Virus record (IMG/VR): IMGVR_UViG_2648501802_000002
DNA: 64,000 bases
Source: a virus
Lineage: Duplodnaviria > Heunggongvirae > Uroviricota > Caudoviricetes
Strand: one strand, 5' to 3'
Both the position numbers and the translations under genes were made by a program. This document shows positions 15,424 through 63,433 of this stretch, piece after piece. Below the pieces are notes generated by a model, which saw only the letters and a list, made by a program, of their open reading frames with translations, had not been told where the DNA came from and did no database searches. Position 1 is the stretch's first letter; each line of letters begins with the position of its first letter.

Positions 15424-15678
15424 TTATCGCCTTCGTGCCATATATTTGCGCACCGCGCGGCGTGGACAATCTGAAGCGGTTTCTTTCTGCTGCATCAATC
15501 TCGCAGCCATGCTCAAAAATGTCAGGCACAGCCGAAGCCCGGCATACAATAGCGGTTCCAGTGGCCACGTCTCATTGAGCACATATACCGCCATGAAAAT
15601 CGAGTCAAAAACTATCGCCGCCAGCGATAACTTCATTGTCGAAAGTCGGCGGAGCTGCCGGAGTTTATTCATTGACAA
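15424..15678 (-). CDS. Small hydrophobic protein (possible membrane protein) downstream of lyz
   Basis: 84-aa ORF with hydrophobic stretch LSLAAIVFDSIFMAVYVL; overlaps lyz stop; coding status uncertain. Confidence 0.25.
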   Translation of the reverse strand: MSMNKLRQLRRLSTMKLSLAAIVFDSIFMAVYVLNETWPLEPLLYAGLRLCLTFLSMAARLMQQKETASDCPRRAVRKYMARRR

Positions 15679-16222
15679 GCCCCGTCAGGCAAAGCTGGCG
15701 TTCTTTTTCACGGCGAATCTTTAAACCTCGCAGGGGCACGCCGTTACTGTTCACGAAATCAGGGAGATGGTTACACATATTCACCCATTCCCCTTTCTGC
15801 GCCCACTTGTGGATGGACGTTTCTACTCGCATGCCTCGCGCTTTGCTGTAGTAGGTCCGTAAGCTATTGCATCCCATATTGAATGCCGCGCTTGTCATTG
15901 CACTGAAGGCATTATCGGGCATGTCTTTGCCCCGGAAGTGCTGATTAATACAGCGTTCAGCGATCAGGATATTCTTTTCCCAATCAGCGGCGATTTGCTG
16001 GTCGGTTTTTCGCACACCCGGCGTTACCCCGTGTGTATTACCGATCCCGTCAGTCCATACCCCCGCCGGGCACATGTATGGATCACGTCGGCAACCTTCA
16101 GCGTTACCAATCTGCTCAAGCCCCGCCTGGTTGGTTCGCACATTGCCATTACCCATCACGATGGTAATCATCACCGCGATAGCGCAAATTGCACCGCCTC
16201 CTGCGGCTGTTTTTCCCTTCAT
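15665..16222 (-). CDS. lyz: P1 Lyz-type SAR endolysin (glycoside hydrolase family 24 lysozyme)
   Basis: 185-aa product from internal ATG: MKGKTAAGGGAICAIAVMITIVMGNGNVRT (signal-arrest-release domain) then ...NAEGCRRDPYMCPAGVWTDGIGNTHGV; matches my memory of P1 Lyz including the three regulatory cysteines. Confidence 0.8.
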   Translation of the reverse strand: MKGKTAAGGGAICAIAVMITIVMGNGNVRTNQAGLEQIGNAEGCRRDPYMCPAGVWTDGIGNTHGVTPGVRKTDQQIAADWEKNILIAERCINQHFRGKDMPDNAFSAMTSAAFNMGCNSLRTYYSKARGMRVETSIHKWAQKGEWVNMCNHLPDFVNSNGVPLRGLKIRREKERQLCLTGLVNE

Positions 16223-16355
16223 AAAGACCTCATAAGCGAATTTTTTACGCTCCAGGACAAACACCCATTCACAGCCAATACCGACTGACTCGATCCCTTT
16301 AGAAGGCACAGGATAATGCAAATCACTTGTTAGCTACGTTTCAAAGATATACATT

Positions 16356-16372
16356 ATTGCTCTAATTAATTT
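16356..16372 (+). promoter_or_regulatory. P1 C1 repressor operator-like 17-mer upstream of ssb
   Basis: ATTGCTCTAATTAATTT, 16/17 match to the C1 operator consensus ATTGCTCTAATAAATTT as I recall it. Confidence 0.35.
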
Positions 16373-16391
16373 ATTTTATTAGGTAAGATAA

Positions 16392-16880
16392 GTGGCACAA
16401 CGCGGTGTAAACAAAGTCATCCTGATTGGTACCCTGGGGCAAGACCCGGAGATCAGGTATATACCAAATGGCGGAGCGGTCGGAAGACTCAGCATCGCAA
16501 CGAATGAATCATGGCGCGACAAGCAAACTGGCCAACAGAAAGAGCAAACAGAATGGCATAAAGTCGTTTTGTTCGGAAAACTTGCTGAAATTGCGAGTGA
16601 ATATTTACGAAAAGGTTCTCAGGTCTACATCGAAGGGAAACTTAAAACCCGTAAGTGGACAGATGACGCCGGTGTAGAACGTTACACGACGGAAATTATC
16701 GTCAGCCAGGGCGGCACCATGCAAATGATCGGCGCTCGCCGTGACGATTCACAGTCCTCAAATGGCTGGAGGCAATCAAACCAACCTCAAAACCACCAGC
16801 AATACAGCGGTGGCGGTAAACCTCAGAGCAACGCCAATAACGAACCTCCAATGGACTTTGACGACGATATTCCGTTTTGA
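16392..16880 (+). CDS. ssb: Single-stranded DNA-binding protein
   Basis: 162-aa ORF; OB-fold N-terminus ([18 protein letters not shown]...[30 protein letters not shown]), Gly/Gln-rich linker, acidic tail DFDDDIPF. Confidence 0.85.
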
Positions 16881-21876: not shown

Positions 21877-22242
21877 TTATGCTGCCTCTTTAATGTTGGC
21901 GGCTATCCATGCCGCCGTGTGCTGTTTAACCTGGTCCAGATCGATGTATGTGCCAACATATTGACTCAAGTCCTGCAACGTACCGATAAATGCATCGGTG
22001 CTCTGATCGACGAATTTATCAGCCAGGAAATCAGCAACCAGTTTTGGCACACCATCATGTACCGAAGGTTGTTTTTCCTCGCCACTACCGCCGCCGGACG
22101 CGCCGTACCCCATCTGTTGCATGATCTGGTCAATTTCATCGCTGATATCCAGCAACTCCATGCCACTCGCGGTAGCCGCTTTGGACATCAGAGCATCCAA
22201 CTTATCGCTGAGATCCATTAACTCAATAGCTGATAGTGTCAT
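21877..22242 (-). CDS. ddrA: DdrA-like protein
   Basis: 121-aa ORF between darA-like and ddrB-like genes. Confidence 0.4.
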   Translation of the reverse strand: MTLSAIELMDLSDKLDALMSKAATASGMELLDISDEIDQIMQQMGYGASGGGSGEEKQPSVHDGVPKLVADFLADKFVDQSTDAFIGTLQDLSQYVGTYIDLDQVKQHTAAWIAANIKEAA

Positions 22243-24158
22243 GCCGCTACCCCCGCTTTCTGGATTGCTACCAGCAGATCAGCCAGGTGGCGAGCTGCGC
22301 CGTTAACCAGCTCTTCGTTTTCCTCAAAACGTCCGGCAGCCTGAAGGGCTGCAATCGCTTCCCGGACATTGCCCCGGGCGTTACGGATCTCCGCCATGTC
22401 AGTGCTTTGTATATCCATCACGTTATTGAGATATTCAATGGCTTTATTAGCCTCTGCATCTGCTTCGCTAACCGTTTCATCAGGCTGTGCCGGGGCCGGT
22501 TCTGGCTGAGTAATCTCACCGACTTCGGCCTGCAATGCATTGATCATGCTCTGCACCATTTTCTCGGTGCCAGCGCCCCCAGGAAACGCAATATTGGGGA
22601 AAGTTTTTTGAAACTGAGTTTTCAGCATTACGCGGAACTCGTCTGGTGAGCTGGTGGCCAGCTCCAGAGCTTTTTGTGCATATTTGCCAAACGGACCATT
22701 AGTAAGTGTCTTCGCCAGGAAGTCGAAAGAATCCTCGCGAGGCAATAACTTCAGGTCGTACTCACTCATTTGCTGATCAGAAAGCGGGGTATCGTAAGTA
22801 GCAATGCCGTAGCGTGCATATTCATAATACGGGTCACCTTCATCAGGGCGCGGCAGAATTGCTTTGTTACCTTCAGGTATTGCGCCAGGGGCCGCCGGAC
22901 GCATTTGCAGGGCATATCGATATGCACCTACAGAGACTTCTGGTTCAGGCGAAGAGCTACCGGTATCCTCCGCTGGTTCAGGCTCGACGTTTTCCGGTTT
23001 ATGTTCTTCTGGTTGGACCAGGTATTCCGATACATTACCCGCTTTATAGGCTTTAAACAGCTTGCCGATCGCATCTGCCATGTCCACACCCTGTATGGAT
23101 TTAGCCTTGATCATGTATACGCTGCCATCCGGATCGGTTAACTGGATATACCCTTCGCCGCCCCCAATGAATTGCTTCATTGATGCACCATTACTGAGCG
23201 TCACTTCCCCGTCCATATGCATACGATTTTTGATACTGGCAAGGCGATCCGTCAGCGCGCGAGAGTGCCCACCAGTCATCCCCGCTGGAGCAATGGTATC
23301 GCGCCCACCAGTGCGATTGAGCTGATCAATCTCCGTCTGCAAACGCTCATTCTCTTCATAAAGAGAATCCGCTTCCGATGCAACAGCGTTAATTTTCTGC
23401 TCCAGATCTGCCTTCTGCCCTTCTACCGCTGCCACCTGATCCGCGAGGTCGCTCATGGCATCCTCTTTCTGGTCACTGTCAGCCTGTAGTTGGGTTATTT
23501 CATCAACAAGGGCTTTTTTCTTCTTCTGCGCACGCTGGAATTTTGCCGAGTTTTTCTCTGCAAGGTTGGCAAGTTTCATGGTGACCTGCGCCAGCGTCAT
23601 ATCACGTCCACTCATCGGAGCAACGGTGTGAGTAACGTCTTTTTTATTCAGTAAGAACTGGAAAGCAACCAGCGTATCGCTATTGGTGATCCGGTTTTCC
23701 GCTGTCGGGCTATGAAACAGAATGCTGATAGTCTGACCATCACTGAGCGGAATAATGGCTGGCAGGACTGGCAGCCCGTTAACGTTACGTGCCCGGCCAA
23801 TTTCAGCGCCGCCGATCGCGCGCGCGCCGCTCTGGGCCACATCCCCCGTTTTATCACTCCCCGCAGAGATTCCGGTACCATTCAGCTTCTGGTTCAATGC
23901 CCGGACAAATGCCTGCATGGTCCGGTGTAACTGCAAACGAGTAGAACTAATCGCCTCCAATAAATCCGTAGCACACCAGTGGATCGGCGTGTCATAGAAG
24001 AACGTTGCCTCGATTTCCTCCAGGGTGTTGGATTCCGTCATCAGATAGCGGTCCTGACCAGCCATTAATGCGCGATATTCATCATCAGTCACCGGCGGGG
24101 GAAGCACGTCAAGCCCCGGCTTAATCGTCACCCCTTTATTGATATTGAACTGTTCCAT
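22239..24158 (-). CDS. darA: DarA-like capsid-internal antirestriction protein
   Basis: 639-aa ORF with central coiled-coil; size and order match recollection of P1 DarA precursor. Confidence 0.5.
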   Translation of the reverse strand: MEQFNINKGVTIKPGLDVLPPPVTDDEYRALMAGQDRYLMTESNTLEEIEATFFYDTPIHWCATDLLEAISSTRLQLHRTMQAFVRALNQKLNGTGISAGSDKTGDVAQSGARAIGGAEIGRARNVNGLPVLPAIIPLSDGQTISILFHSPTAENRITNSDTLVAFQFLLNKKDVTHTVAPMSGRDMTLAQVTMKLANLAEKNSAKFQRAQKKKKALVDEITQLQADSDQKEDAMSDLADQVAAVEGQKADLEQKINAVASEADSLYEENERLQTEIDQLNRTGGRDTIAPAGMTGGHSRALTDRLASIKNRMHMDGEVTLSNGASMKQFIGGGEGYIQLTDPDGSVYMIKAKSIQGVDMADAIGKLFKAYKAGNVSEYLVQPEEHKPENVEPEPAEDTGSSSPEPEVSVGAYRYALQMRPAAPGAIPEGNKAILPRPDEGDPYYEYARYGIATYDTPLSDQQMSEYDLKLLPREDSFDFLAKTLTNGPFGKYAQKALELATSSPDEFRVMLKTQFQKTFPNIAFPGGAGTEKMVQSMINALQAEVGEITQPEPAPAQPDETVSEADAEANKAIEYLNNVMDIQSTDMAEIRNARGNVREAIAALQAAGRFEENEELVNGAARHLADLLVAIQKAGVAA

Positions 24159-24159
24159 G

Positions 24160-24771
24160 TTAATTTCCTGCTTTCAGTTGCTTAAGACGGCGTTTGAGTT
24201 CGCCATTCCGTGCCTTTTCGTTATTGAGTCGGCCCGTCTCCTTATCCAACTTCGCCCGCAAATCTGTGATCTGCTGTTGATTGAAAGACACCGAATTCTG
24301 CGCGGACTTATAAGCGGCAACCACCTGAGCATTCCGCTGTTTTGCTTCTTGCAGGCGCTGAAAGTTGGATTTAACTGCCGGTTTCTTGTCTACCGGATTG
24401 GCAACACGCTTCGCTTTGGCGATCAGTGATTTCTGGAATTTCGCAGAGTTTTTGCGGGCCGCTTGCCCCATGACGGTACCAAGCGTCTTGATATCTGGCG
24501 ACTGTGCGTTAGGAATAGATTTTCCATTCAGTTTCACAGCCGATATATCACCAGTATCGTTTACCTGTATGGCAAGAATTTGTCCGTCGTTAAGAACCAG
24601 TTTTGCGGTTTTAACTTTAACGCCATCTTTCGTTGTTGCGCGGTTGCTGGAGTCAACCTCAATTACCGTAACACCGGTTTTATTGATCGCCGCGATAAGG
24701 GATTTCAGCCCCTTTTCATTAACCTGGTCAAAATCGACCGTTGCATACTTATTTTTCGTCATCTGACACAT
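24160..24771 (-). CDS. hdf: Hdf-like protein
   Basis: 203-aa ORF between lydB-like and darA-like genes. Confidence 0.4.
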   Translation of the reverse strand: MCQMTKNKYATVDFDQVNEKGLKSLIAAINKTGVTVIEVDSSNRATTKDGVKVKTAKLVLNDGQILAIQVNDTGDISAVKLNGKSIPNAQSPDIKTLGTVMGQAARKNSAKFQKSLIAKAKRVANPVDKKPAVKSNFQRLQEAKQRNAQVVAAYKSAQNSVSFNQQQITDLRAKLDKETGRLNNEKARNGELKRRLKQLKAGN

Positions 24772-25192
24772 CCTGTGCGAGATTTATTACGTAACTTCTG
24801 CGGATTTGCTGAGTAACAGGGAAAATCCGATACAACGGGTTAATGAACGAGTCGCCATGCGTAACCATGACGTTGAAATGCCACAGTCGCTCTCCTTTAC
24901 CCATATATTCAGTGGGTATGTACAACCATTCACTGTTTTCGCCCTGTTCAGCCGACGTCAGACAACGTTGTTCGCCTTCAATCACTGTCGTCGGCTTCTG
25001 AACATCGCGGATCCAATATCTGACCGTTGCGCCGCGCAAAAACGGGAATTTAGACCGGTATTTGAACGGCACCCGAATGAAACCCGGTTTAATTTCCACA
25101 TCACCAAGTTCTAAATGCGTGATGTCCTTGCGTTTTAGCAAATAGCGATCGGCTAAGGCTAACGCAAGAACGCATACACCCCAGCCAATCAT
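24749..25192 (-). CDS. lydB: LydB-like protein (putative antiholin/lysis regulator)
   Basis: 147-aa ORF with N-terminal hydrophobic segment, directly downstream of holin-like gene. Confidence 0.45.
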   Translation of the reverse strand: MIGWGVCVLALALADRYLLKRKDITHLELGDVEIKPGFIRVPFKYRSKFPFLRGATVRYWIRDVQKPTTVIEGEQRCLTSAEQGENSEWLYIPTEYMGKGERLWHFNVMVTHGDSFINPLYRIFPVTQQIRRSYVINLAQDVSDDEK

Positions 25193-25518
25193 TTCCCACC
25201 TCCCTTTTTCACCAAACTTGTAAGAACATTCAGAATGCTATCGATATTCACTCGTTTCATCCCTGAAATCACCTCATGACCGTTATTGCTGGCTATCGTT
25301 ACCATTAAGTACGTAATTGATAACTCCCAGCCTTCGTGTTGCCCCAATAGGTACGCCACCGCGCCAGCTGTCACTGCAACAAAGATCTCCGTAACCAATC
25401 CCAACAAGTTGCCAGACTGGCGACCATCTCGGACATCCATCAGGAACGTGCCTATCCCACCAATTACTGAAAGCAGGAGCGCAATAGCAACTGGAGCTAA
25501 TTCCTGTGTGTCAAGCAC
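25189..25518 (-). CDS. lydA: LydA-like holin
   Basis: 109-aa ORF with three hydrophobic helices and charged C-terminus KKGGGK. Confidence 0.55.
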   Translation of the reverse strand: MLDTQELAPVAIALLLSVIGGIGTFLMDVRDGRQSGNLLGLVTEIFVAVTAGAVAYLLGQHEGWELSITYLMVTIASNNGHEVISGMKRVNIDSILNVLTSLVKKGGGK

Positions 25519-25590
25519 AAGTTCCCTCCTACGTTGTCAGGAGGTAATGGTATGCAAAGTAACTTCTCAACCGGTCATGTTACTTGACAT

Positions 25591-25616
25591 CCTCCACGTC
25601 CTTTAGAGCGTGGAGG
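25591..25616. other. 8-bp perfect inverted repeat hairpin immediately 5' of the intron-like element
   Basis: CCTCCACG-(10 nt loop)-CGTGGAGG, 4 nt upstream of the GTGCG start at 25621. Confidence 0.4.
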
Positions 25617-25620
25617 ATGT

Positions 25621-26460
25621 GTGCGCCCAGCATGGGCGCGATCTTGGAGGTGAAAGCCCTCCCGCGAGCTGACCACAGCGAGCGAAAGGAAGTGCAACTG
25701 CGTGAGGGCGGCTAGGCGTGGGGAGGAAGCACGGAATGAACCCGTGAGCCGATGAACAAGAATCGGATATGAGGCGCGATGGAGCAAGGCGAGCAGGCAC
25801 ATCACTGCGAAGCTTTCGTGACAAAGTCGCGTAGATCCGACGGTTGTGCGGGGAAGGATCGCGTTCTTACCTGGGGAGTTCTCGCCTCATGCCTGAAAGG
25901 GCAACGTCGTAAGACGGAGCGAGAAGTCAGCAGAGGCCGTAGTAGTCAGGACTCCGACGAAGGGCCGAACGAGAAGGAAAGCCAAAAGATATGACTCTTG
26001 ACAGGACATTGCGTCAGAAGCCGGGGAAGCCCGGTACGGACCCGCATGCCGGGTGGTGTGGCAGGGGCGCAGCCTTGTGCTCCCCCCTATGCCGATCAAG
26101 CAGAACATTGTGCTGGGCCTCTGACGCATCTCCTTGATGGTCTTGGCATCGTGCTTAAGTGGATTGGTGTCGTCTCTGATAGGCTCATGGAGGCAGAATG
26201 AAACTCAAAAATCCGGGACAGCACGCAAAACAGGCTGCACAAAAAGCGCAGGTTGCGTAGGAGTGGAATCCCGCTCCCAAAAAATGGTGCAGAAGTTGCG
26301 GCAGTGGTCATCCGACGCACTGGAAAATAACAAACCCGCCGTGACCAGAATCGGAGGCCTGAGGGAGTGACCGTAAAACCGGATAACCCAGGCAGCAAAT
26401 ACCCGCTGGATGAGGCATGGTTCCGGCAGATAATACCGAAAACCGCCAGACACACTGGAT
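25621..26460 (+). mobile_element. Group II intron 5' fragment (domains I-III-like RNA, no intact maturase ORF); 3' boundary approximate
   Basis: Starts GTGCGCCCAGCATGGGCG (compare Ll.LtrB GTGCGCCCAGATAGGGTG); shares motifs GCGAAAG, AATCGG, GTCGC and CGTAGTAGTC...GAAGGG with LtrB domains I-III; GNRA-rich; only short ORFs on either strand. Confidence 0.5.
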
Positions 26461-26516
26461 AATCAGTAGAAATAACCCATTAAAATCATTATAATAATTG
26501 GGCACATTATTATATT

Positions 26517-27080
26517 ATGCTGAATAATAGAGACATGAATATTAATGAACTTAAAGACTGTATTCACTATGAAGTAATCGGTAGCGAGCGTCCTTTCTCC
26601 TGGCGAAAGGCAATTGTTCGCGCAATAAAACATAGAAGAGTTCGTTATTTATTTTGGTGGCGCATAGCCAAATACCTTTTTGATAAAGGCGGATACTGTC
26701 GGAAGATTGCGGGGAAAATGGAACGTTTCATTCTTGATAAATATAGTGTAACAGTCCCTTTAACTGTAAATATAGGGAAAGGCTTTGATATTTCTTATCT
26801 CAACGGTGTTGTTATCGGTCACAAAGTAACCATTGGTGAAAATTGTTCAATAAAACCAGGGGTAACTATTGGGCTACGTGGTGATTTTAATGATATGGAT
26901 ATTGTTATAGGACATAATGTGACCATTGGTTGTAATGCCACCATTCTTGGTGGCAAAGTGCGTATAGGAAACAATGTCACAATAGGTGCTCATGCATTGG
27001 TATTGCATGATATTCCTGATGATTCAACATTCATCACTAAATTTCAGTCTGAAGTTATCTGCTCGTCCTCTTGCACATAA
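26517..27080 (+). CDS. Hexapeptide-repeat (left-handed beta-helix) acetyltransferase, AT-rich cargo
   Basis: 187-aa ORF with tandem hexapeptide repeats ([23 protein letters not shown]...[34 protein letters not shown]); 3' end overlaps the convergent tfa stop by 37 nt. Confidence 0.7.
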
Positions 27081-27661
27081 CCCTGATTCATCAGCTCTGG
27101 CCATACGATATCCGGAGCTGTACTGGTGTCAATTCGACTCACTAATACTCTGTATTTTCTCCAGGAATCCAGTTGTGAATTTTCCTCGGTTGTTGCTATT
27201 TCAAGATTAACTGCATCCTGCAGAATTGCGATGTTATCTGTTGCCTCCTGAATCAACCTTGCCTTTTTCTCTTCCGCTTCCCGTATCCGAAACAGTTTTT
27301 CTGCTTCCTCATCCTTCACCCAGGATACGCCGTCCCACTTCTGATACTCCCCTGCTGGCGACAACCAGGTGACATTCTCTGGTAACGGTCCGAGTTCAGA
27401 AATAAACAACGCGTCCCCCGATGCCACGTCATAGACCGTTTTACCACGATGGTCTTCAACAATAATCCATGATTCATTTTCACTGTTAAAAACTGCCACA
27501 AAGCCAGCAGGAATTTCCGGTGGGGCGATATCTGTAGAATTAGCTGGTAGCCCTGTATGAGGTGGAATATATGCGTCACCTTCACCAATAAACTCATTAG
27601 TTCCGGCGAGCAGGTTATAAATTTTTACAGTACGTGATTGTTCACTCATTCTGAATGCCAT
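27044..27661 (-). CDS. tfa: Tail fibre assembly protein (lambda Tfa-like) with altered C-terminal tail
   Basis: 205-aa ORF; [60 protein letters not shown]... nearly matches lambda Tfa; last about 16 residues differ. Confidence 0.8.
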
Positions 27662-52771: not shown

Positions 52772-52869
52772 AATTAAATATTCCTTAAAAATTTGCGTAA
52801 TTGTGAATAGATGGAGTAATGAGCTATCCAGCCCTGACACCAGCTCCCATCCGGAAGCTGACAAATGTG

Positions 52870-53634
52870 TTAATCAACGATTGTGATACCGTCTTTCAAT
52901 GCGTTTTGCTTACCTGCAACATCCAGTGCATCAAAAGCAGAGCGTTTCATCGTTTTCTGACCAATATCATGCTGTGTCGGACGGGAGCCGCCGCCATTGT
53001 TGCCACTGGCTTTCAGGATGTAGTCTTTCTGAGGGTAATTTTCGACAAGGAACTCCAGCGCCTCATCAAACTGCGCCAGTTCGCCAGGCTTCGCGCGGGA
53101 ATAAATTTTGTTGCCGGAAGCGTCATAAGCAACGATCCTCCCTTCTTCCACTTTGAATGCCTGCCCGAAGCGGGCTTGTAATAAATCTGCCGGGATCGCA
53201 ATTTTATCGGCAATATATTTTGAACCCGCAAAACTACCGCCAATCATAGAATCGTAAAGCTGCTTCTCCAGCATCTGAGAGCGTTGCTTTTCTTCATCTA
53301 ATTGCTGCTGAAAATTTTTCGTAATTTCTGCCTTAACCTGGTCAACCTGTCCCGCATCGAGCAGCTTTTTCTGGTCGATTTTTGACAGCATTTCCAGTGC
53401 CTCGATCGCCTTCTTCGGGTCTTCGATAGCGGCAAACTTAGCCAGTTTTTCCTCTGCAGCTTCTTTAGCCAGGCGATGATTTTTTGCCTCGCCATTAAGC
53501 TCTGTAATTTTTTTTGTCGCCAGCGGTGCATCGAAGCCAATTTCTTTACCATCGTCGTGCACATAAACTGGCAGGCCAGCAGTATCAATTTCTGCGTATT
53601 GTTTTCCGTTAATCTCGACCGTTTTCAGTTTCAT
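52870..53634 (-). CDS. Capsid scaffolding protein
   Basis: Start moved to internal ATG (MKLKTVEINGKQYAEID...); helical, charged, between head-morphogenesis and capsid genes. Confidence 0.6.
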   Translation of the reverse strand: MKLKTVEINGKQYAEIDTAGLPVYVHDDGKEIGFDAPLATKKITELNGEAKNHRLAKEAAEEKLAKFAAIEDPKKAIEALEMLSKIDQKKLLDAGQVDQVKAEITKNFQQQLDEEKQRSQMLEKQLYDSMIGGSFAGSKYIADKIAIPADLLQARFGQAFKVEEGRIVAYDASGNKIYSRAKPGELAQFDEALEFLVENYPQKDYILKASGNNGGGSRPTQHDIGQKTMKRSAFDALDVAGKQNALKDGITIVD

Positions 53635-53738
53635 ATTAGTACCTGGTTTAAGTCTTCCGACAGTTACGCTGCTCACCATCCGGATCGCAGCAATAAAAAA
53701 GGCCACCCGAAGGTAGCCTGTTGTAATAAATGATTTAT

Positions 53739-54854
53739 TTAAATCCCTGCTTTTCTGAATACCTGTGCATCACGCTCACGGAGCTGCTTCAGCGTCAGCC
53801 ATTCGCCTTTATCGGTGTAAAATTCATCTGGCGACATACCACCATCCCGAATCAGCTTTGCTCGGGTTTCCCCCACAATCTGTTTTTGTCTGGTGTAAGG
53901 CTGACGCAAAAACCATTCCCTGTAGGTTGTATCTCCGGCCACCACGCCATCCATGCTGGCCCGCTCAGCCGGGGAAATATCGCGAACATCAATACCCAGT
54001 TCCTTCGCTGATTTCAGAATGAACGTTTCCGTTGAGCGGCAGCAGAAATGAATTTTTCCCGGCCCCTGCAAATAAGGCACGCTGTGACCTACAGGTTTAT
54101 TATTCAGCGTATATTTGAGGCGATCCCTGATTCGACATTGTGGCGTAGTACGATTATCAAGCGTTGATAACCATTGCTTACCCTTAATCAAATCATTATT
54201 CGCGCTGGCAAAACTCTCACGGGCAGTAGCAGCAAGATGTCCAACCGCTGTTTTTGCAATGCTGGCCGCATTAGCCCGGCTCATCTGCAATGCACCATCC
54301 TGAAATCCCTTACTGACATGTCCCCGAATTTTTCTTGCGATCTGCTCATTGGTATCCCCCAGCAAAAAACCCTGACGCACTGTATTTGTTATGCGTCTGA
54401 GCCGATCCGCCTCAAGATCTGAGGCCCACTCACTGAGCAGTCGTCCCTGGAATGGTCGCGCCATTGCAGCGGCATAAAGTGCATCAGGAGAGATACCAAC
54501 CAGAGGGTGAACATCAGCAACAAAATCAGGTAGCATAGAATCAAACAGACTTAACTGATAACCAGCCTCATAAATTGCCAGCTCGTTCAGCTCTCCGGAG
54601 AGACTGGTAAACATGCTGTTAATAGCAGTGCGGTTAACCTTTCTGACGCTCGCCAGAAGTGACTCCAGGCGCTTAACGGTAAAATTACCTGGATCGAGGC
54701 TGTCCAGTGCTATCAGCAGGCGAGCAGTAAGTTCCGCATCGCTGTCATTCAGTATTTTCACCATTCTGGCAGCCACGCCAGTGCTATAGCGGGATATCCA
54801 GACTGCATGAGCAATTGATTCATCACGCAGCCGTTCATTCACGGTTTGCATCAT
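53739..54854 (-). CDS. Head morphogenesis protein (Mu F / SPP1 gp7-like)
   Basis: 371-aa ORF directly downstream of portal. Confidence 0.7.
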   Translation of the reverse strand: MMQTVNERLRDESIAHAVWISRYSTGVAARMVKILNDSDAELTARLLIALDSLDPGNFTVKRLESLLASVRKVNRTAINSMFTSLSGELNELAIYEAGYQLSLFDSMLPDFVADVHPLVGISPDALYAAAMARPFQGRLLSEWASDLEADRLRRITNTVRQGFLLGDTNEQIARKIRGHVSKGFQDGALQMSRANAASIAKTAVGHLAATARESFASANNDLIKGKQWLSTLDNRTTPQCRIRDRLKYTLNNKPVGHSVPYLQGPGKIHFCCRSTETFILKSAKELGIDVRDISPAERASMDGVVAGDTTYREWFLRQPYTRQKQIVGETRAKLIRDGGMSPDEFYTDKGEWLTLKQLRERDAQVFRKAGI

Positions 54855-56241
54855 TGATTTCCATCAGCATTACACTCTGATTTTTTAATTCATCGATCAC
54901 TTCCTCTGGACGGGAATCCTGATCGATAAATTTCAACGCCTGCAACACCCGAACCGCATCAATCTGACGTATATCACCGCCCTGACGCAATGACTGAACA
55001 GCCAGCGCGGAGGATGAGTCAAACACCTGGGCAGATACATCCAGTTCAGTGCGCACATCCACATTGCCACCGCAACTCTCTCCGATCCATTCCGCCATTA
55101 TCTGGAGAATATTATCGAGGGCATCTTCGAGGGAGTTCGCCATTGTATAAAGCGGCGAGTTTTCCTGCATTCGCTCTTCATTAGTCTGATCAACAGATTT
55201 GGTGGATGTATTTTCAGCACGCAGAAGTTTAGCGCCGGCATGACGCATCTGATTTTCCAGCTTCTCAAGTGATGTTTCGCCAGATTCTATCGCTGCGCCA
55301 CTATGTTCAACATATTCGAGGCCATTTTTTGTTCTGTCCTCAAAAATCGTAGCGGTGGATGCACCAACCGTCAGTTCTTCATTCCTGTCCAGCCCGTAGG
55401 CCACCAGCAATGGAACGCGGGTAACATGAAGAATATTGTCCTGCTCGCTCTGGCTTTGCCAGTGCTTGATATTCAGCAAGCCAAGATTAAGCAATGGCGG
55501 TGTACCACGCATAAATCCTGTTTTCTTCGTGTACAGTGTTACCAGAGGAATATCATCACGGCTGGTATTCCATGACTCATGAAGCGTCCAGACAGATTCG
55601 CCATTAGTGCCTTCGCTACGTCGATAAATTTCAACTCGACGGGGCATAATATGGCGGATCTGCTCCACCTTCTTCTGCCCGAAATCATCACCATCAATAA
55701 TGATGACCTCTTTTATACGCAAATCAGTGAGAACAACTTTCCCTTTTTCAACTTTCGATTTCCATCCAATAACCTGGCGTGGATTCAGCATCGTAACGTA
55801 CGGACGACCACCGGTCGCGTTTTCATCGGCTTTTGTACGAATCTCTTTCATATCCGTTCGTGGATAGTCCACCAGCGCATGTGCCACACCATACTGAAAT
55901 GCGAGGCTGAAAAATTGCTGGGCCCACACATCCAGTCGGCTCCCCTCCATGTCGATATTTTCTGCATATTCCCTGATTTTTGCCGGCGTTTCCTCACTCA
56001 ATACTGTCGGCTCTGCAAATATGCGCCCAATATTTTGCTTGATGCTTTCTTCATACACAGGAAGTAGCGTAGCCACAGACAGGCGTTTTTTATAAGCGTC
56101 TTCATCTTCGTTAGGCCATTTTGGGAGATAATTTTCCCCCTGCCTGCGCATTTCAAGCGTACCGCCCATCAGTGCGTCGTTAATATCCCACGCCTCCAGC
56201 ATATCGTTATAGTCGAGGTTGGGTGTTGATATATCAGCCAT
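54835..56241 (-). CDS. Portal protein
   Basis: 468-aa ORF immediately downstream of terminase large subunit. Confidence 0.75.
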   Translation of the reverse strand: MADISTPNLDYNDMLEAWDINDALMGGTLEMRRQGENYLPKWPNEDEDAYKKRLSVATLLPVYEESIKQNIGRIFAEPTVLSEETPAKIREYAENIDMEGSRLDVWAQQFFSLAFQYGVAHALVDYPRTDMKEIRTKADENATGGRPYVTMLNPRQVIGWKSKVEKGKVVLTDLRIKEVIIIDGDDFGQKKVEQIRHIMPRRVEIYRRSEGTNGESVWTLHESWNTSRDDIPLVTLYTKKTGFMRGTPPLLNLGLLNIKHWQSQSEQDNILHVTRVPLLVAYGLDRNEELTVGASTATIFEDRTKNGLEYVEHSGAAIESGETSLEKLENQMRHAGAKLLRAENTSTKSVDQTNEERMQENSPLYTMANSLEDALDNILQIMAEWIGESCGGNVDVRTELDVSAQVFDSSSALAVQSLRQGGDIRQIDAVRVLQALKFIDQDSRPEEVIDELKNQSVMLMEINDANRE

Positions 56242-56243
56242 AA

Positions 56244-57554
56244 TTAAATCCGAAGTGATGTGACTCTTCCGGTCGGTTTGACAATAGGGAATTGCTTAAC
56301 GATGAAATAACCTCCTGCATCATTCGGGTGATCATTGCCAGATTTTTTATCAGGCTCCCCCTTCTCATCCCAGACCTGTTGCTCCAGAGATTCGGCATAT
56401 AACGGGCAACGCTTCACATTAACTTTATAGCGACGCTCACCATTGGCATTGCAGAACATTGCATTCATTGAGTTAACGCGATCTTTTACTGGCGGGTTCG
56501 AGCTGTTCACCACAACGTTAAAACCAGCCTGCTTAAGCTGGGCTATATCCGTCGTACTTGCGTTACTTGATTTTCTGGAATCCCCGGAAGCATCTGGATA
56601 AATATAAATTTCCCTCACTTTCCGGTAATCATTCCCATCATACAGCCAGAAGCGTTCTTTAATGATGCGGATCATATCCGGCGTATCGTAGGCATTGATG
56701 ATTTCAGTTACCGCACATGGAAGCCCCAAACGCAGCACATGGACGATTCCCGCCATCTTTCCAACGTTAAAATCCATCCCAATATAAATCGGCTCCCCTG
56801 GCTGCTCCACTTCTTCGCAATTATTCAGTTTCCGGTCAAACTGATGGTAAACAGTACCACTTGTCAGGTTAGTAAACTGTCCTCGAAGATAGGCTTTAAT
56901 CAGCTCTGGAGGGTATGATTCAAGAAGCGAAGGAATGTAATCTGCTGGCAGGTTCTTTTCATTATCGAAAGTAGATGCCTGCACCAGACCATACAGTGAG
57001 GCCAGCTCTGTTTTTTCACGCACGGCTTTAACAAACTGCTCGTAGACAAATTTGAATCCTTCCGGCGTGGTTGTAACGTCAATACCGTTGCGAAGTCCAT
57101 CAATCTTATAACGCATACGTGCAATTATCTTGCGCCACGCCGTTCTGGCTTTTTCCTTCGGCAAAATGTCCAGTTCATCCACCAACGCATTACCAATTTT
57201 GAAACCGACGATCGTTTGTGGCTTCTCCATCGATCTGCAGATAGTGGTTCCCCGATACTGGCGTCCGTAATAAAAGTGAACCTCTTTATTTCCCTCATTA
57301 ATTTTTACGTTCAATCCCCAGTCAGCAGCAACTTCTTCCACTGTAGGGTAAAAAATATCGCGAATTTGGGGATACGTTGGCGCAAAATATCCCTGATTTA
57401 TACCTGGATGCTCCCAAATCCCCTTGCATATGCCGCCACACCCAACCCATGTTTTGCCCGAGCCAAAACCAGCAATATAGGCTTTAAATTTATGGGGCAT
57501 TGAAAGAAATCGCGCCTGAGGCACATTAAGCGTCGGAGAGATCATCTTCATCAC
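56244..57554 (-). CDS. Terminase large subunit
   Basis: 436-aa ORF with Walker A AGFGSGKTW and C-terminal nuclease-like region. Confidence 0.85.
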   Translation of the reverse strand: MMKMISPTLNVPQARFLSMPHKFKAYIAGFGSGKTWVGCGGICKGIWEHPGINQGYFAPTYPQIRDIFYPTVEEVAADWGLNVKINEGNKEVHFYYGRQYRGTTICRSMEKPQTIVGFKIGNALVDELDILPKEKARTAWRKIIARMRYKIDGLRNGIDVTTTPEGFKFVYEQFVKAVREKTELASLYGLVQASTFDNEKNLPADYIPSLLESYPPELIKAYLRGQFTNLTSGTVYHQFDRKLNNCEEVEQPGEPIYIGMDFNVGKMAGIVHVLRLGLPCAVTEIINAYDTPDMIRIIKERFWLYDGNDYRKVREIYIYPDASGDSRKSSNASTTDIAQLKQAGFNVVVNSSNPPVKDRVNSMNAMFCNANGERRYKVNVKRCPLYAESLEQQVWDEKGEPDKKSGNDHPNDAGGYFIVKQFPIVKPTGRVTSLRI

Positions 57555-58620
57555 TCCTTACTCTGGCATCAACCACATTAATATTGATCGCCACAGGCTG
57601 GGGATGTTCATTATCTTCCACCGTTTCGATCTCTTTGCGCAGCTTCTGGTTTTCCATTCTGCGCCGTTCAATTTCCAGTTCCTGTAGCCGTTTATCTGCA
57701 CATAAAGCCCCGCCAGCAGAAAACAAACGCAACAATTCACGCCGGGCGGCAGCCTTATCCTCCAGCAGGATCTCAACGCCGAATTTTCCGAATTTTGCCC
57801 CTGCATATAATTGCCGCGCATCCCCATCAAGCAGAGTGGTATCAGCCATATAAAGCTGTCCCGTTCCCTCACCGCAGCACTTCGGGCAGTCCGGATTGGG
57901 TATGGCGTTATCAACAAAGCCGAGGCCTCCATATTCCGGTTCGGGTTTGCCATCTCTGGAAGCCTGCGCCGCTGCCTTGTCGAATTCTGCTATATCGCGC
58001 CACTGGTAGAGATGATTCTCGCCCCAGCAATAACGGCAGTTAACACGGCGAAATTGTGCAAGCTGATTGGGGTCGGCCAGGACAATAGCCATCAACTGAC
58101 TCACTAGTAAATCCAGGTCTGCGGTATAGCGTTTCTGGTACTGATTGCGGAAGTAGCTGATAGCGCGAAAAACCCTGGCATTTCTAAGCATACGACTGGC
58201 GTTGCTGTTAGCTGTCGCACCTTGCCCCTCATAACCGGCTAGTCGGTACGCCTCTGTCGGCTTTTTACCCTGAGCAACAAGCATCGCAAACTTAGCCTGC
58301 TGGTCAGAAATGCCGAATTCATCGGGACAGAACGAAAATTCCTCCGCGTCGCCCTCATTCAGGCCCGCATCGAATACTGGCTTTTTTTCCTGAGATTTTT
58401 CGTTCCGCTTTTGTGCAGTCTGCGCAGATTTTTTCTGCGCACTTTTTTGCGCAGTTTTGCACATTTCTGTCTGCGCATTTTTCGGAGTTTTTTTGATGTA
58501 ACGACGGGCTGTTGCGTAATTCAGTCCCCTTGCTTCACACCATGCCACCGGAGATATACCGGAGCGGGTGTATTCAGCAATATACTCCTGCTGCAACGCC
58601 CCCCAGTCCGGTCTGCTCAT
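57526..58620 (-). CDS. Terminase small subunit
   Basis: 364-aa ORF; N-terminal HTH (MSRPDWGALQQEYIAEYTRSGISPVAWCEARGLNYATARRY); overlaps terminase large start. Confidence 0.65.
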   Translation of the reverse strand: MSRPDWGALQQEYIAEYTRSGISPVAWCEARGLNYATARRYIKKTPKNAQTEMCKTAQKSAQKKSAQTAQKRNEKSQEKKPVFDAGLNEGDAEEFSFCPDEFGISDQQAKFAMLVAQGKKPTEAYRLAGYEGQGATANSNASRMLRNARVFRAISYFRNQYQKRYTADLDLLVSQLMAIVLADPNQLAQFRRVNCRYCWGENHLYQWRDIAEFDKAAAQASRDGKPEPEYGGLGFVDNAIPNPDCPKCCGEGTGQLYMADTTLLDGDARQLYAGAKFGKFGVEILLEDKAAARRELLRLFSAGGALCADKRLQELEIERRRMENQKLRKEIETVEDNEHPQPVAININVVDARVRSDEDDLSDA

Positions 58621-58623
58621 CAG

Positions 58624-58875
58624 TTAGTCCTGATTTTTATCCACCCTGAGTAGTTCGCGCAGAGCAAAGGCATCCCCTTTTCTGGCAAGCTTAAACAATG
58701 CCGCTCGTAACTCGGCTTCACCTTTCGCTCTGCCCTTACGGATGGCCGCATAAAAATCTGTCATTGCTTCCCGATTTTCTTTCAGTCGGTTCAGATCAAC
58801 ATCCAGAACGTCAGCGATTTGTTGTGCAGTCATCCGGCACGCTGCCAGAGACTCGACTTTCGAATACGGAATCAT
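58624..58875 (-). CDS. Small hypothetical protein upstream of terminase
   Basis: 83-aa helical ORF; overlaps upstream ORF by 65 nt so true start uncertain. Confidence 0.3.
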   Translation of the reverse strand: MIPYSKVESLAACRMTAQQIADVLDVDLNRLKENREAMTDFYAAIRKGRAKGEAELRAALFKLARKGDAFALRELLRVDKNQD

Positions 58876-59764
58876 TTGTCACCCCCATTGATATGCAGGG
58901 TGTCTTCTTCCTGTATTTTTCGTGAAGGATTTTTACTGCAGCGTTGTTCCAGGTGACCTGATGGTGAATGCGTTTATGGCTGGCACCCATCAGTGAGATT
59001 TTTACGCACGACGGCGCATACATGACGGAGTAAAAACTTTTAACGTAGGTTCCGGAATCCAGATACAGCTCGGTCATTCCGCCGCTGTTTTTCTGCGTCT
59101 GTTTCTGCCCTAACTGGACAGCACCGATCGTCATAAACAATTCACCACAGCGACCGAGATTCGTGTACGTATTCACATCCTCGTTAATGCGCCCCATGAA
59201 TGAGAACGGTCGATCAACCGAACAGATAAAGCTGTTCATTGCCTTGCGTTTCACCCACGAAGCATGGCCGCCATTGTCACCAAGAAAATCCCCGCCCTGC
59301 GACATAGCGATGGAAAGAGCAGGTATTGATTCGTAGTACGCCAGCATTTCAGAAAGGATCGCATCCAGTTTCCTTATCGGAAAATAGGCCTGGTCATAGT
59401 TGCGATCCACCCGAAACTGGAACTCGTGATAATCATCATCGAGCTGAATGAAGTATTTACACCCGACCAGTTTTGCCAGGTCGAAACAGGCATTACGGGC
59501 GTAAAAAATTGAGCGGCGGTCACAGAAATTATCGGCTTCGTCAAAACGACTGGCGATATCGGCTTTGGAAAACACCAGCACCTGTTCACCAAATTCAGCC
59601 ATGTACTGATTCCGTGTCTTATCTTCATCATCAACAACGATAAAAATTTTCCCGGTATAGCCAGCACGACGCAACGTCCGGTAAGTCAGAACTTTGTCCG
59701 GTCGCCCGTGAGTCAGAATAAAGGCGCAAAAATCATCACGCATATTCCTCCTCCTCACCACCAT
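58811..59764 (-). CDS. Hypothetical protein with GT-A-like fold features (DXD-type motifs)
   Basis: 317-aa ORF; FILTHGRPDKVL...IFIVVDDED and FIQLDDDY resemble nucleotide-sugar transferase motifs; function unverified. Confidence 0.4.
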   Translation of the reverse strand: MVVRRRNMRDDFCAFILTHGRPDKVLTYRTLRRAGYTGKIFIVVDDEDKTRNQYMAEFGEQVLVFSKADIASRFDEADNFCDRRSIFYARNACFDLAKLVGCKYFIQLDDDYHEFQFRVDRNYDQAYFPIRKLDAILSEMLAYYESIPALSIAMSQGGDFLGDNGGHASWVKRKAMNSFICSVDRPFSFMGRINEDVNTYTNLGRCGELFMTIGAVQLGQKQTQKNSGGMTELYLDSGTYVKSFYSVMYAPSCVKISLMGASHKRIHHQVTWNNAAVKILHEKYRKKTPCISMGVTNDSVFESRVSGSVPDDCTTNR

Positions 59765-60527
59765 GCATGATCTCCACCATGCGCTGCGTCATCCGGACAA
59801 ATCCATTTTCAATAGCCTGCTGATAATCAATGATCACCAGCGCCGACTCCTCGAAAAAACACTGAATTTCAGAGGGGGCGTGAGCGTAATAGTCCGCAAT
59901 TCTGCTGAAATTAAACACCGTGTGACGTTCTGCCGCACACAGGAGGAATTTCTCAATATCAGGCTCAAGGGACGCCGAACGTATCCGGCTGATCAGCTCC
60001 TGAGTTTTCGTATCGTCGTACAGTTCACTGATATCCGGTTTACCGCCCGACGGCTCATAAACAGGCGTATCAATTTTCGTCGCATACGGCTCCTCCTCAT
60101 TTCCTGTACCGGGCAAAACATCCGTCAACAGTTCATCAATTTCTGTCGGGATGAAGCCTGTCAGGGAGACATCAAAATCAGCATTGATTAGGTCCGACAG
60201 CTCCATCCGCAACAGATCTTCATCCCAGCCAGCATTCATCGGCAGGCGATTATCTGCCAGGCGGTACGCCTTTTTCTGCTCATCCGTCAGGCCAGACAGA
60301 ACAATGACCGGAACAGAATCCATTTTGAGCATTTCAGCCGCCATAACACGACCGTGACCCGCAATAATTTCGCCCTTTTCGTCAATCAGCACCGGATTAG
60401 TCCAGCCGAATTGCTTAATACTTTCTACCAGTTGTGCCACCTGCTCAGGGCTGTGCGTCCTGGCGTTGTGCGCATACGGTGACAATTCTTGTAATGGGCG
60501 ATAGACTATCTTTAATTTCTCGCTCAT
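59736..60527 (-). CDS. ParB-like nuclease domain protein (YnaK-like)
   Basis: 263-aa ORF; ParB N-terminal domain motif (VLIDEKGEIIAGHGRVMAAEML). Confidence 0.7.
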   Translation of the reverse strand: MSEKLKIVYRPLQELSPYAHNARTHSPEQVAQLVESIKQFGWTNPVLIDEKGEIIAGHGRVMAAEMLKMDSVPVIVLSGLTDEQKKAYRLADNRLPMNAGWDEDLLRMELSDLINADFDVSLTGFIPTEIDELLTDVLPGTGNEEEPYATKIDTPVYEPSGGKPDISELYDDTKTQELISRIRSASLEPDIEKFLLCAAERHTVFNFSRIADYYAHAPSEIQCFFEESALVIIDYQQAIENGFVRMTQRMVEIMHGGEEEEYA

Positions 60528-60664
60528 ACAGCCTTGCTTTATGAATAAAACGCACCCCAGCAGCCAGTGCTACTGGGGACGGAGGGGTTGCTGGTAAAGT
60601 TAGGTATTGGATCAATGAGTGAGTCAACATAATATTAAACTCACAATTATAAATCAGCCATATA

Positions 60665-62140
60665 TTAGGAGCGCCAAAAAAAACCTGAAAACAATATAAT
60701 AACAGGATAAATTTCAAGGCGACCAAGAATCATAGCTATGCACATTAAACATTTTGCAATGTCATTAAGCACTCCGAATGACGATGCAGTAGCCCCAAAA
60801 CCTAATCCCATATTATTAATACATGCAGCCACTGTTGCAAATGATGTAAGAAAATCATATCCCATACCATTTAACACCAGTATAAAAAACACCGTGAAGA
60901 GAGTATAAAGAAAAAAGAAACTCCATACAGACCTCATTACACGATCTGTAACTATCTTCCCTCCTACATTTACACTCAACAACGCTCTGGGATGAGAAAG
61001 CTGATTTATCTCGTGTTTGCTTTGTTTGAAAAGTATAAGAAATCGAAGTGACTTAATTCCACCACAAGTTGAACCTATACATCCCCCAAAGAAACTTGAC
61101 AACAGCAAAAACACTATCGTGTGCGTGGGCCAACTTGCATAATCCTGCGTAGCTAAACCATTATCAGTGAGCATGGAGCTGGCAAGAAAAAACGAATGAA
61201 TAAAACTTCCATGCAAGTCATACATACCTATATGCCAGACCTGGAAAGAGGTAACAATGATCACCCCTAAGGCTATTAACAGAAAGAAACGAAGTTCAAT
61301 ATCTCTGATTAAAGGTTTTATCGTTTTCCTGCTAATAACAATATACCAAAGAGTGAAGTTGAAAGCCGATAGCAGGGAAAAAGAACCAGCCACCAGCTCA
61401 ACCAAATAGTTATTAAAATATCCGATACTCTCGCTATGAGTTGAGAAACCACCAAGCGAAACTGTGGAAATCCCGTGACAAATAGCATCAAACAAAGGCA
61501 TTCCTGCAAGTCTATAACAGACAATACAAGCAATACCTAATAAAGAATAAGTTATCCACAGTGTCCGTGACGTATCGGCCAGGCGGGGAGTGAGTTTGTC
61601 ATCCTTAAATGGCCCCGGCATTTCTGACTGATAAAGCTTTGCACCACCAATACCCAATAATGGCAATACAGCAACCGCCAGAACAATAACTCCTAAACCA
61701 CCTATAAAATTTAACTGTGACCGATAGTACAAATATGCCCGAGGTAATGAACTAACATCATCAATTACAGTTGCTCCTGTTGTTGTTATTCCAGAAACCC
61801 CTTCAAACAGAGCATCAATGAACGTTAAATTAAGTTCTGAGTCAATCCATAAAGGGAATGCACTAATAACAGAAAACAAAATCCAAAACATTACAATTAT
61901 AATAAACCCATCACGGGTACGTAATTGAATGCCAGATTTCTTAGTTGTATACCACGCTCCGCCACCAATGCAAAAAAATATAACGAAAGTTATAAAGAAA
62001 ACGAACAGGCTTTTTTCTTTATAAAACAATGCTACAACCATTGGTGGCAACATTGAAAGACTATAGAGCCAAACCAGGAACCCACACATATGAGTAACAA
62101 CTCTTACATGAGATGTATTCATATCTAAATATTCTTTCAA
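60665..62140 (-). CDS. trkG: TrkH/TrkG-family potassium uptake membrane protein (Rac trkG-like cargo)
   Basis: 491-aa polytopic membrane ORF, AT-rich; N-terminus MNTSHVRVVTHMCGFLVWLYSLSMLPP as I recall for E. coli TrkG; sits between lysis cassette and packaging genes as in Rac. Confidence 0.8.
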   Translation of the reverse strand: MKEYLDMNTSHVRVVTHMCGFLVWLYSLSMLPPMVVALFYKEKSLFVFFITFVIFFCIGGGAWYTTKKSGIQLRTRDGFIIIVMFWILFSVISAFPLWIDSELNLTFIDALFEGVSGITTTGATVIDDVSSLPRAYLYYRSQLNFIGGLGVIVLAVAVLPLLGIGGAKLYQSEMPGPFKDDKLTPRLADTSRTLWITYSLLGIACIVCYRLAGMPLFDAICHGISTVSLGGFSTHSESIGYFNNYLVELVAGSFSLLSAFNFTLWYIVISRKTIKPLIRDIELRFFLLIALGVIIVTSFQVWHIGMYDLHGSFIHSFFLASSMLTDNGLATQDYASWPTHTIVFLLLSSFFGGCIGSTCGGIKSLRFLILFKQSKHEINQLSHPRALLSVNVGGKIVTDRVMRSVWSFFFLYTLFTVFFILVLNGMGYDFLTSFATVAACINNMGLGFGATASSFGVLNDIAKCLMCIAMILGRLEIYPVIILFSGFFWRS

Positions 62141-62259
62141 TTATAACCACCTTGCTGCAATATTATGATTATACTGTATAAAATTTAACTCCTCTTAGAT
62201 CTTACTTCACTGTTCCTTATGAAACAATCATCAAAATGAATCATATTGTAGTTAAGATT

Positions 62260-62724
62260 TTACTTTAAACACTGCTCGGTTATGTATTGCTGAGCACCTT
62301 CAAGTTGGGCCTGCATCATTACCAGTCGTTCCCGGAGGGTGAAATAATCCCGTTCAGCGGTGTCTGCCAGTCGGGGGGAGGCTGCATTATCCACGCCGGA
62401 GGCGGTGGTGGCTTCACGCACTGACTGACAGACTGCTTTGATGTGCAACCGACGACGACCAGCGGCAACATCATCACGCAGAACATCATTTTCAGCTTTC
62501 GCATCAGCTAACTCCTTCGTGTATTTTGCATCGAGCGCAGCAACATCACGCTGACGCATCTGCATGTCAGTAATTGCCGCGTTCGCCAGCTTCAGTTCTC
62601 TGGCATTTTTGTCGCGCTGTTCTTTGTAGGCGATGGCGTTATCACGGTAATGATTAACACCCCATGACAGGCAGACGACGATGCAGATAACCAGAGCGGA
62701 GATAATCGCGGTTACTCTGTTCAT
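62260..62724 (-). CDS. Rz: Spanin inner-membrane subunit Rz
   Basis: [55 protein letters not shown]... near-identical to lambda Rz; start set at MNRV. Confidence 0.8.
62319..62504 (-). CDS. Rz1: Spanin outer-membrane lipoprotein subunit Rz1 (embedded in Rz, +1 frame)
   Basis: 61-aa ORF with lipobox LVVVGC and proline run [15 protein letters not shown]. Confidence 0.75.
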
Positions 62725-63218
62725 TGCTGACCCCACAAACAGATTTCACGCTCAATCTCACGACGAGTCATGAGACCTTTCCATTGCTTACCGCCAGCAT
62801 ATGTCCAGCGACGTAGCTGATCACATGCGCCTTTGATATCGCCCTGGTTTATTTTGCGAAGAAGCGTCGATGTTCTGAAATTGCCAGCACCCACGTTGTA
62901 AACGAATGAGTAAAGAGCGCCGCGCGTTGTTTCCGGTATATCGACTTTGATGTACGGGTTAATTTGTCTGGCGACCGTGGCAAGGTCTTTATTCAAGAGT
63001 GTTTTGCATTCTGCTTTGGTATACGTTTTACCGAGCATGATGTCTTTTCCTGTATGCCCGTGACATACAGTCCATACACCAACAATATCTTTGTATGGTA
63101 TGTAGCTGACACCTTCCAGACCATCGTTACCACTTGGGCCAGTGATTAACACTGATGCTATAGCAATTGCTCCGCCACCAATAGCAGCAGCAACGACTTT
63201 TCGTAATGATGGAGGCAT
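62721..63218 (-). CDS. R: P21 R-type SAR endolysin (GH24 lysozyme)
   Basis: 165-aa ORF; [27 protein letters not shown] signal-arrest-release domain and lysozyme core; matches remembered P21 R. Confidence 0.85.
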
Positions 63219-63433
63219 TATTCACCTCTCGCAGCCTTGCGCTTATCTTCTTTAATCTTGAAATAAAGGTTTGTCAGGTACGTCAGCAGGCCAAATACCA
63301 GACTACCCAGCACACCGATTGCAGCCCACTGTGACGGAGTTACTCTATCGAGCAACTGTAAAAACCAGTAGCCAGCACTGCCTGCGGAGGTGCCGTAGGC
63401 AATGCCTGTTGAAATTTTGTCCATGGATTTCAT
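63218..63433 (-). CDS. S: Pinholin S21 (dual-start holin/antiholin)
   Basis: [71 protein letters not shown], 71 aa; dual-start MKSMDK; matches remembered S21. Confidence 0.8.

Follow-up and report, generated by a model that had tools for sequence, protein, structure and literature searches.

The window examined here, the whole 64,000-nucleotide stretch of the IMG/VR virus record IMGVR_UViG_2648501802_000002, carries two sets of phage lysis genes, each with its own signal-arrest-release (SAR) endolysin. One is the lyz-lydD-lydE and lydA-lydB set of phage P1, and the other is an S-R-Rz-Rz1 cassette of the phage 21 type. A first-pass annotation of this DNA assigned both to one region, but they belong to two unrelated elements that abut at position 37565. 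Positions 1 to 37565 are a P1-like phage-plasmid block with 97-98% identity to, and collinearity with, phage P1 and free P1-like plasmids. The block is closer to the free plasmids, which are ~95 kb in length, than to phage P1. Positions 37565 to 64000 are the late region of a Rac-type lambdoid prophage. This region is 99.9% identical to the Rac locus of FDAARGOS_1279, which is chromosomal and lies beside pinR-uspF-ompN, and among its genes are trkG and ynaK, markers of Rac. The window contains two lysis systems, both ordinary and already characterised, that belong to distinct mobile elements within a single E. coli strain.

The P1-type lysis genes all lie on the minus strand. The lyz gene (15665-16222) encodes a SAR endolysin of 185 amino acids, 184 of which are identical in P1 lysozyme (PDB 1XJT), the sole change being L37Q. 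Its true start is MKGKTAAGGGAICAIAVMITIV at 16222, although the mechanical open reading frame (ORF) extends to 16321. Lyz has a GH24 (T4-type) lysozyme domain (Pfam PF00959 Phage_lysozyme, 2e-22). The SAR helix comprises residues 6-23, AAGGGAICAIAVMITIVM, of which 56% are G, A, S, T or C, with a peak Kyte-Doolittle value (19-residue) of 2.07; the string that had been quoted for this N-terminal domain occurs verbatim. Lyz retains C13, E42, C44, C51 and T57. Cys13 of the SAR helix, Cys44 and Cys51 are reportedly the residues of an activating disulfide isomerisation, and Glu42 is said to be catalytic. Near-identity to this characterised protein suggests that Lyz would be exported in a Sec-dependent manner and released upon depolarisation.

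Directly coupled to lyz is lydD (15424-15672), which overlaps the end of lyz at 15665 and encodes the pinholin of the lyz operon, with 82 residues identical to P1 LydD (84 amino acids). The small overlapping gene lydE (15359-15568) follows; of the 69 residues it encodes, 68 are shared with P1 LydE (71 amino acids). An in-frame deletion of 6 nucleotides affects both genes, so that LydE is two amino acids shorter and the basic C-terminal tail of LydD reads RRR, versus RRRRR in P1. In the P1 late operon, lyz comes first and is followed by lydD and lydE, and both downstream genes are kept in the window. According to Bednarek et al. 2022 (PMC9025707), the morphology of P1 lysis is dominated by the pinholin LydD.

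The holin gene lydA (25189-25518; Pfam Phage_holin_3_3) and the gene for the LydA antagonist, the antiholin LydB (24749-25192; Pfam LydB, 8e-104), overlap each other. Their products are identical to those of P1 at 109 of 109 and 145 of 147 residues, respectively. As in P1, they form the head of the dar operon behind its late promoter and lie 9 kb from lyz. Both late promoters are conserved. The Lpa-dependent promoter LPlyz (16310-16328) and the promoter of lydA-lydB and the dar operon, LPdar (25547-25565), are each identical to the annotated P1 elements. Around LPlyz there is one mismatch in a 116-nucleotide aligned region, located outside the promoter, and the adjacent C1 operator Ossb is also conserved. 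The P1 spanin genes mlp/ppfA and the late activator gene lpa are positioned outside the window. Lyz with LydA and LydB is therefore present and intact where the first-pass annotation had located it. That annotation also gave each endolysin a holin of its own; both sets are indeed there, but it omitted lydD and lydE, which are the direct operon partners of lyz.

The order and context of these genes (pro, lydE-lydD-lyz, ssb; hdf-lydB-lydA) are those of phage P1. Apart from L37Q in Lyz and the two arginines missing from LydD, the window differs from P1 in carrying a group II intron fragment and a hexapeptide acetyltransferase gene instead of lydC and the cin/C-segment inversion module. Homology between the window and P1 ends at 25578, and lydC is absent. 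The replacement of P1 lydC, cin and the invertible C-segment spans 25579-28769, just upstream of LPdar and lydA, and the same variant is found in the plasmid elppa9 unnamed5. The intron fragment represents domains D1-D4 (Rfam RF02001 at 25702-25866, 95.5 bits; RF01998 at 25884-25965) and has no reverse-transcriptase ORF nearby. The hexapeptide-repeat acetyltransferase gene, at 26517-27080, stands in place of cin.

The second set of lysis genes, likewise on the minus strand, is a compact cassette with overlapping gene boundaries. Its S gene (63218-63433) encodes a phage-21-type pinholin of 71 amino acids (Pfam PF04971 "Bacteriophage P21 holin S", 2e-35) that is 100% identical to the annotated EssD of FDAARGOS_1279. 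The protein begins MKSMDK, with a dual start at M1 and M4. Its first transmembrane domain consists of G, A, S, T or C at 52% of positions, and G40, S44 and G48 are present. In S21, the form started at M1 is the antiholin and that started at M4 the holin, and the second transmembrane domain has a G40xxxS44xxxG48 motif.

The R gene (62721-63218) encodes an R21-type SAR endolysin of 165 amino acids, 162 of which are identical in RrrD (PDB 4ZPU). It also matches R21 (PDB 3HDE) over its full length with an E value of 3e-110. R has a GH24 domain (Pfam PF00959, 2e-45) with the triad E35/D44/T50, and an N-terminal SAR helix that contains no cysteine and is 60% G, A, S, T or C; here too the quoted string is found verbatim. 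Rz (62260-62724), a 154-amino-acid i-spanin (Pfam PF03245 Phage_lysis, 4e-53), is 100% identical to the lysis protein of FDAARGOS_1279. The gene for Rz1 (62319-62504), an o-spanin lipoprotein of 61 amino acids (Pfam PF06085 Rz1, 2e-19), lies wholly inside Rz and out of frame with it, and its product has a lipobox, VVGC, followed by PPPPP, as in two-component embedded spanins. All four genes of the S21/R21/Rz/Rz1 set thus agree with their earlier identification and are intact.

The cassette shares with phage 21 and with the DLP12 genes essD-rrrD-rzpD-rzoD the S-R-Rz(Rz1) order, the overlapping stop and start codons, the dual-start S gene and the embedded Rz1. It differs from them in residing in a Rac-type prophage, directly upstream of trkG (60665-62122, minus strand; 100% identity to annotated TrkG). 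In the Rac prophage of K-12, the S-R-Rz cassette is reduced to remnants. A hairpin resembling a terminator, with a T run after it, lies on the minus strand at 63542-63559, about 110 nucleotides upstream of the S start. Its position is compatible with a tR'-type terminator read through with a Q-dependent late antiterminator, although such hairpins are not more numerous in our scan than expected from shuffled sequence, and this function is only weakly suggested. An ORF with a TolA C-terminal domain lies upstream of the cassette at 63685-63858.

The join between the two elements at 37565 is blunt, with an overlap of 1 nucleotide. On the P1 side it cuts pmgB (36810-37565, minus strand), whose first 36 codons are gone (tblastn covers query residues 37-293 only). 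On the Rac side it leaves a 5' stub of ~470 nucleotides of the side tail fibre gene stf (37565-38036, minus strand; tblastn aligns residues 1-139 of the 791-residue query), and this stub is frameshifted at 37620. The stf gene is full length in FDAARGOS_1279 and in CP007394.1, a record of E. coli ST2747. No end of an insertion sequence, no lox-like site and no shared homology beyond 1 nucleotide is found at the join. Among 5,426 complete E. coli genomes there is not one that spans it. Searches for exact matches to the junction returned no hits in species-representative genomes and none in metagenome contigs, which shows only that the join is not widespread.

One explanation of these features is that the join is real, and that a P1-like phage-plasmid integrated by illegitimate recombination into stf of Rac, producing a composite chromosomal prophage with two SAR-endolysin systems. 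The given sequence is continuous across 37565, in agreement with this proposal. However, the bluntness of the join and the absence of a recombination signature speak against it, as does a cluster of apparent consensus errors that adjoins the join. Over the 26.4 kb of the Rac block, the alignment with FDAARGOS_1279 has 28 differing columns, 13 of which are gaps. Seventeen of these columns, including 10 of the 13 gap columns (all single-base), fall at 37620-39054, within 1.5 kb of the join, where they put stf, lom and the end of J out of frame. At all 17 columns, CP007394.1 agrees with FDAARGOS_1279, and the differences are therefore private to the window. Conversely, CP007394.1 has a missing-T cluster of its own at 2177174-2179144, adjoining its own breakpoint, where the window is the same as FDAARGOS_1279. 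Since each assembly has a private error cluster next to its breakpoint, these clusters resemble low-coverage contig ends. The 5' region of stf is multi-copy, occurring in a median of 3 places per genome, which makes it a natural place for a contig to end.

CP007394.1 is also informative about the origin of the window. This entry is the sole recorded source of a protein identical to Lyz with L37Q. Look-ups of the window's stf stub, DarA and N-terminal DarB fragment returned no recorded protein. Over the 32.7 kb aligned in the part of CP007394.1 that we examined first, the window and CP007394.1 show 0 substitutions and differ only in single-base insertions or deletions, which implies that they come from the same strain or clone. 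The strain of origin is almost certainly ST2747 or one of its laboratory derivatives, and the window most likely corresponds to one of the sister records CP007392 or CP007393. The ST2747 parent and two nitrofurantoin-resistant derivatives were sequenced by PacBio C2 at ~28x and assembled with HGAP into ~14 scaffolds each. These scaffolds were ordered into a "gapless chromosome", and no plasmids were reported (PMC3983296).

The arrangement in CP007394.1 (NZ_CP007394.1, 2133102-2183216) is directly at odds with that in the window. In CP007394.1 the Rac tail genes tube-ydaY-tape measure-M-L-K occur twice, and both copies are full of frameshifts. Between the copies lies ~37 kb of shuffled P1-like plasmid DNA, in which the order of the P1 pieces differs from that of the window and which includes genes for a RepB-family replication initiator, a ParA-like protein and ParB. 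The second copy is followed by I, J, lom and then a full-length, intact stf. Many coding sequences in this interval are flagged as frameshifted or partial, and the duplication looks like concatenated scaffolds whose overlapping ends were left unmerged. Two segments of the window, 3246-13014 and 22109-37564, the latter including lydA and lydB, are missing from the 88-kb stretch of CP007394.1 that we examined.

It is highly probable that the join at 37565 is an assembly artefact, produced by stringing a plasmid scaffold and a chromosomal one together. A plasmid scaffold of ~95 kb would have been placed next to a chromosomal scaffold ending in the multi-copy stf when the scaffolds were ordered into the "gapless chromosome". 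The claim that both lysis systems are on one chromosome accordingly loses its footing, because the join is blunt, is not found in other genomes and is contradicted by the sister assembly, and because the published method concatenated scaffolds. A few observations weigh against the artefact. The join (query position 976) is ~100 nucleotides from common stf homology boundaries (865/871 and 1091/1094) and not exactly on one of them. The P1 side of the join has no error cluster, with no insertions or deletions in its last 1.8 kb relative to a 97%-identical plasmid. P1 DNA lies next to tail genes of Rac in both assemblies, which could reflect something real even though the two placements are mutually incompatible. 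Finally, the status of the window as a sister assembly of ST2747 is itself something that we infer.

Some of these observations can be turned in favour of a real integration, which might have arisen in a nitrofurantoin-selected derivative, as nitrofurans damage DNA and induce prophages. The sister assembly also has P1 DNA beside Rac tail genes, P1-like genes are present in a few multi-megabase public contigs, and the P1-like cargo has been cited as being "in the chromosome of E. coli ST2747 (CP007393.1)" (PMC6906374). That citation, however, takes the record at face value. The sister assembly retains intact stf and lom as well as plasmid replication and partition genes, and its placement of the P1 DNA is different and internally duplicated. 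Moreover, the published procedure concatenated scaffolds and reported no plasmids (PMC3983296). We therefore regard a real join as unlikely. Look-ups with LydA and LydB return many P1-like contigs, including a few of multi-megabase size, and have no bearing on the join.

The first-pass annotation also spoke of P1-derived genes, in the sense of a chromosomal remnant, and this does not fit the collinearity of the P1-like block with free ~95-kb P1-like plasmids. A related alternative is that the block, on whatever replicon it resides, is decayed and non-inducible, and that its lysis genes are transcriptionally silent relics. Several apparent lesions could be read this way, but most of them turn out to be variants shared with other plasmids, the join itself or probable consensus errors, and we rejected decay as the principal explanation. 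The absence of lydC and cin and the TnpB element inserted between prt and pro are also seen in free P1-like plasmids, and the truncation of pmgB is simply the join. The remaining lesions are in darB, which has lost 1.9 kb internally and is frameshifted at 9101 within a T run, and in the tail-fibre gene S, which is ~1 kb shorter than that of the closest plasmid. However, the T-run frameshift resembles the consensus errors at other places in the assembly, and darB is an anti-restriction gene that, according to the P1 annotation, is dispensable for lysis. No lysis gene is disrupted, nor is either late promoter, and all are almost identical to their P1 counterparts; the sister record carries replication and partition genes. 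A decayed and silent P1 block is thus very unlikely.

How the two systems would work can be proposed from their near-identity to characterised proteins. Both endolysins would be exported by Sec with an uncleaved, weakly hydrophobic N-terminal helix, and would remain tethered in the inner membrane in an inactive state. When a holin or pinholin depolarises the membrane, collapse of the proton motive force would release and activate the SAR endolysin. Released Lyz would be activated by disulfide isomerisation involving Cys13 of the freed helix, whereas the R21-type enzyme would be activated by refolding. In the P1 system, LydD and LydA would depolarise the membrane, as LydC, missing from the window, does in P1 itself, and LydB would delay LydA. 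In the Rac cassette, the S pinholin would depolarise the membrane, its M1 form acting as antiholin, and Rz and Rz1 would then fuse the membranes.

SAR endolysins have been described as responding to "any temporal membrane depolarization" (PMC9025707). Because the firing of a holin collapses the proton motive force and any depolarisation can release a SAR endolysin, cross-triggering of one system by the other is expected from the mechanism. The first-pass annotation had proposed such cross-triggering as a consequence of having both systems on one chromosome. The mechanistic part of this proposal appears sound, but it is not new, as the published model already includes activation of SAR endolysins in trans by any depolarisation. 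A shared chromosome is also not needed for it, since the effect would act in trans through the membrane. What cross-triggering needs is expression of both late-gene sets in the same cell. P1 late promoters require Lpa, and the lambdoid late set requires its own antiterminator; neither the Lpa gene nor a lambdoid antiterminator gene lies in the window. Should the integration be real, which we consider quite unlikely, a disulfide-caged Lyz system and a conformationally caged R21 system would be inherited together, and induction of one prophage could cause premature lysis of cells in which the other is being produced.

Co-residence of a P1-like plasmid and one or more S21-type cassettes of cryptic lambdoid prophages in one E. 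coli cell is real and common. Almost every E. coli genome has matches to this late and lysis region of Rac, and closely related P1-like plasmids occur in dozens of genomes. A further 703 complete genomes, in which the cassette is intact, contain 80% or more of the 12-kb stretch at 52001-64000. In strain HZ13, the Rac lysis region is on the chromosome and a P1-like plasmid with the cargo block of the window (1-7000) is a separate replicon. Both lysis systems are already known biology, and their adjacency, most likely an artefact, is the sole unusual element. For curation, this means that the "complete chromosome" records of ST2747 appear to contain a concatenated P1-like plasmid, whose cargo at least one paper cites as chromosomal (PMC6906374). 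Analyses of plasmid or prophage location that use ST2747 records call for caution over the P1/Rac region.

Free P1-like plasmids are the closest relatives of the P1-like block. Plasmids of the elppa9 unnamed5 type (94 kb) are 98% identical to, and collinear with, most of positions 1-37565 and share the acetyltransferase/intron variant of the window. Others, of the pJIE250-3 family, share its cargo block. Compared with such plasmids, the window has the darB deletion, the TnpB insertion, a shorter S gene and an abrupt end in pmgB at Rac DNA.

The cargo genes at one end of the block are followed by lxc, ulx, darB, prt, pro, the lyz operon, ssb, ddrB-ddrA-darA-hdf-lydB-lydA, tail fibre genes, R, 16, bplA, pmgA, sit and the 5'-truncated pmgB. 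The cargo occupies 1-5740, in place of P1 res/mod, and the same block is found in many P1-like plasmids (pJIE250-3 family). It encodes a GlxA-type DJ-1/AraC regulator (776-1765), an MBL-fold hydrolase (1781-2557), an EAL-domain protein (4050-4739) and a second AraC-type regulator (4976-5710), and its G+C content falls to 34.5% at 4-6 kb.

The darB gene, which encodes 2255 amino acids in P1, is split into three ORFs at 6468-11287. Its deletion of ~1.9 kb is at 9725/9726, beside a short stretch that aligns on both sides, and may be either real or an assembly collapse. The +1 frameshift at 9101 may be a PacBio consensus error. Between prt and pro, which overlap in P1, a 1.28-kb insertion at 13070-14347 carries, on the minus strand, a gene for a TnpB/InsQ protein of 376 amino acids (IS200/IS605 family OrfB, with a Cas12f-like TNB domain). 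P1 does not have this insertion, which is also present in some other P1-like plasmids and in ST2747 CP007394.1. The tail-fibre gene S (27661-30240) lacks residues 466-925 relative to the closest plasmid and is divided into two ORFs; either natural variation or collapsed internal repeats could account for this.

Beginning at the join, the Rac block contains the truncated stf, lom, J, I, K, L, M, tape measure, ydaY, tail tube and head genes, followed by terminase, a ynaK-like ParB gene, trkG, Rz/Rz1, R and S. The genes K (C40 peptidase) and tail tube are frameshifted relative to FDAARGOS_1279 by single-base homopolymer insertions at 43267 (C run) and 48920 (T run), respectively, which are probably consensus errors and not signs of pseudogenes. 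Adjoining trkG, at 59736-60527, is a full-length ParB/Srx-like YnaK of 263 amino acids, whose gene is a pseudogene in FDAARGOS_1279.

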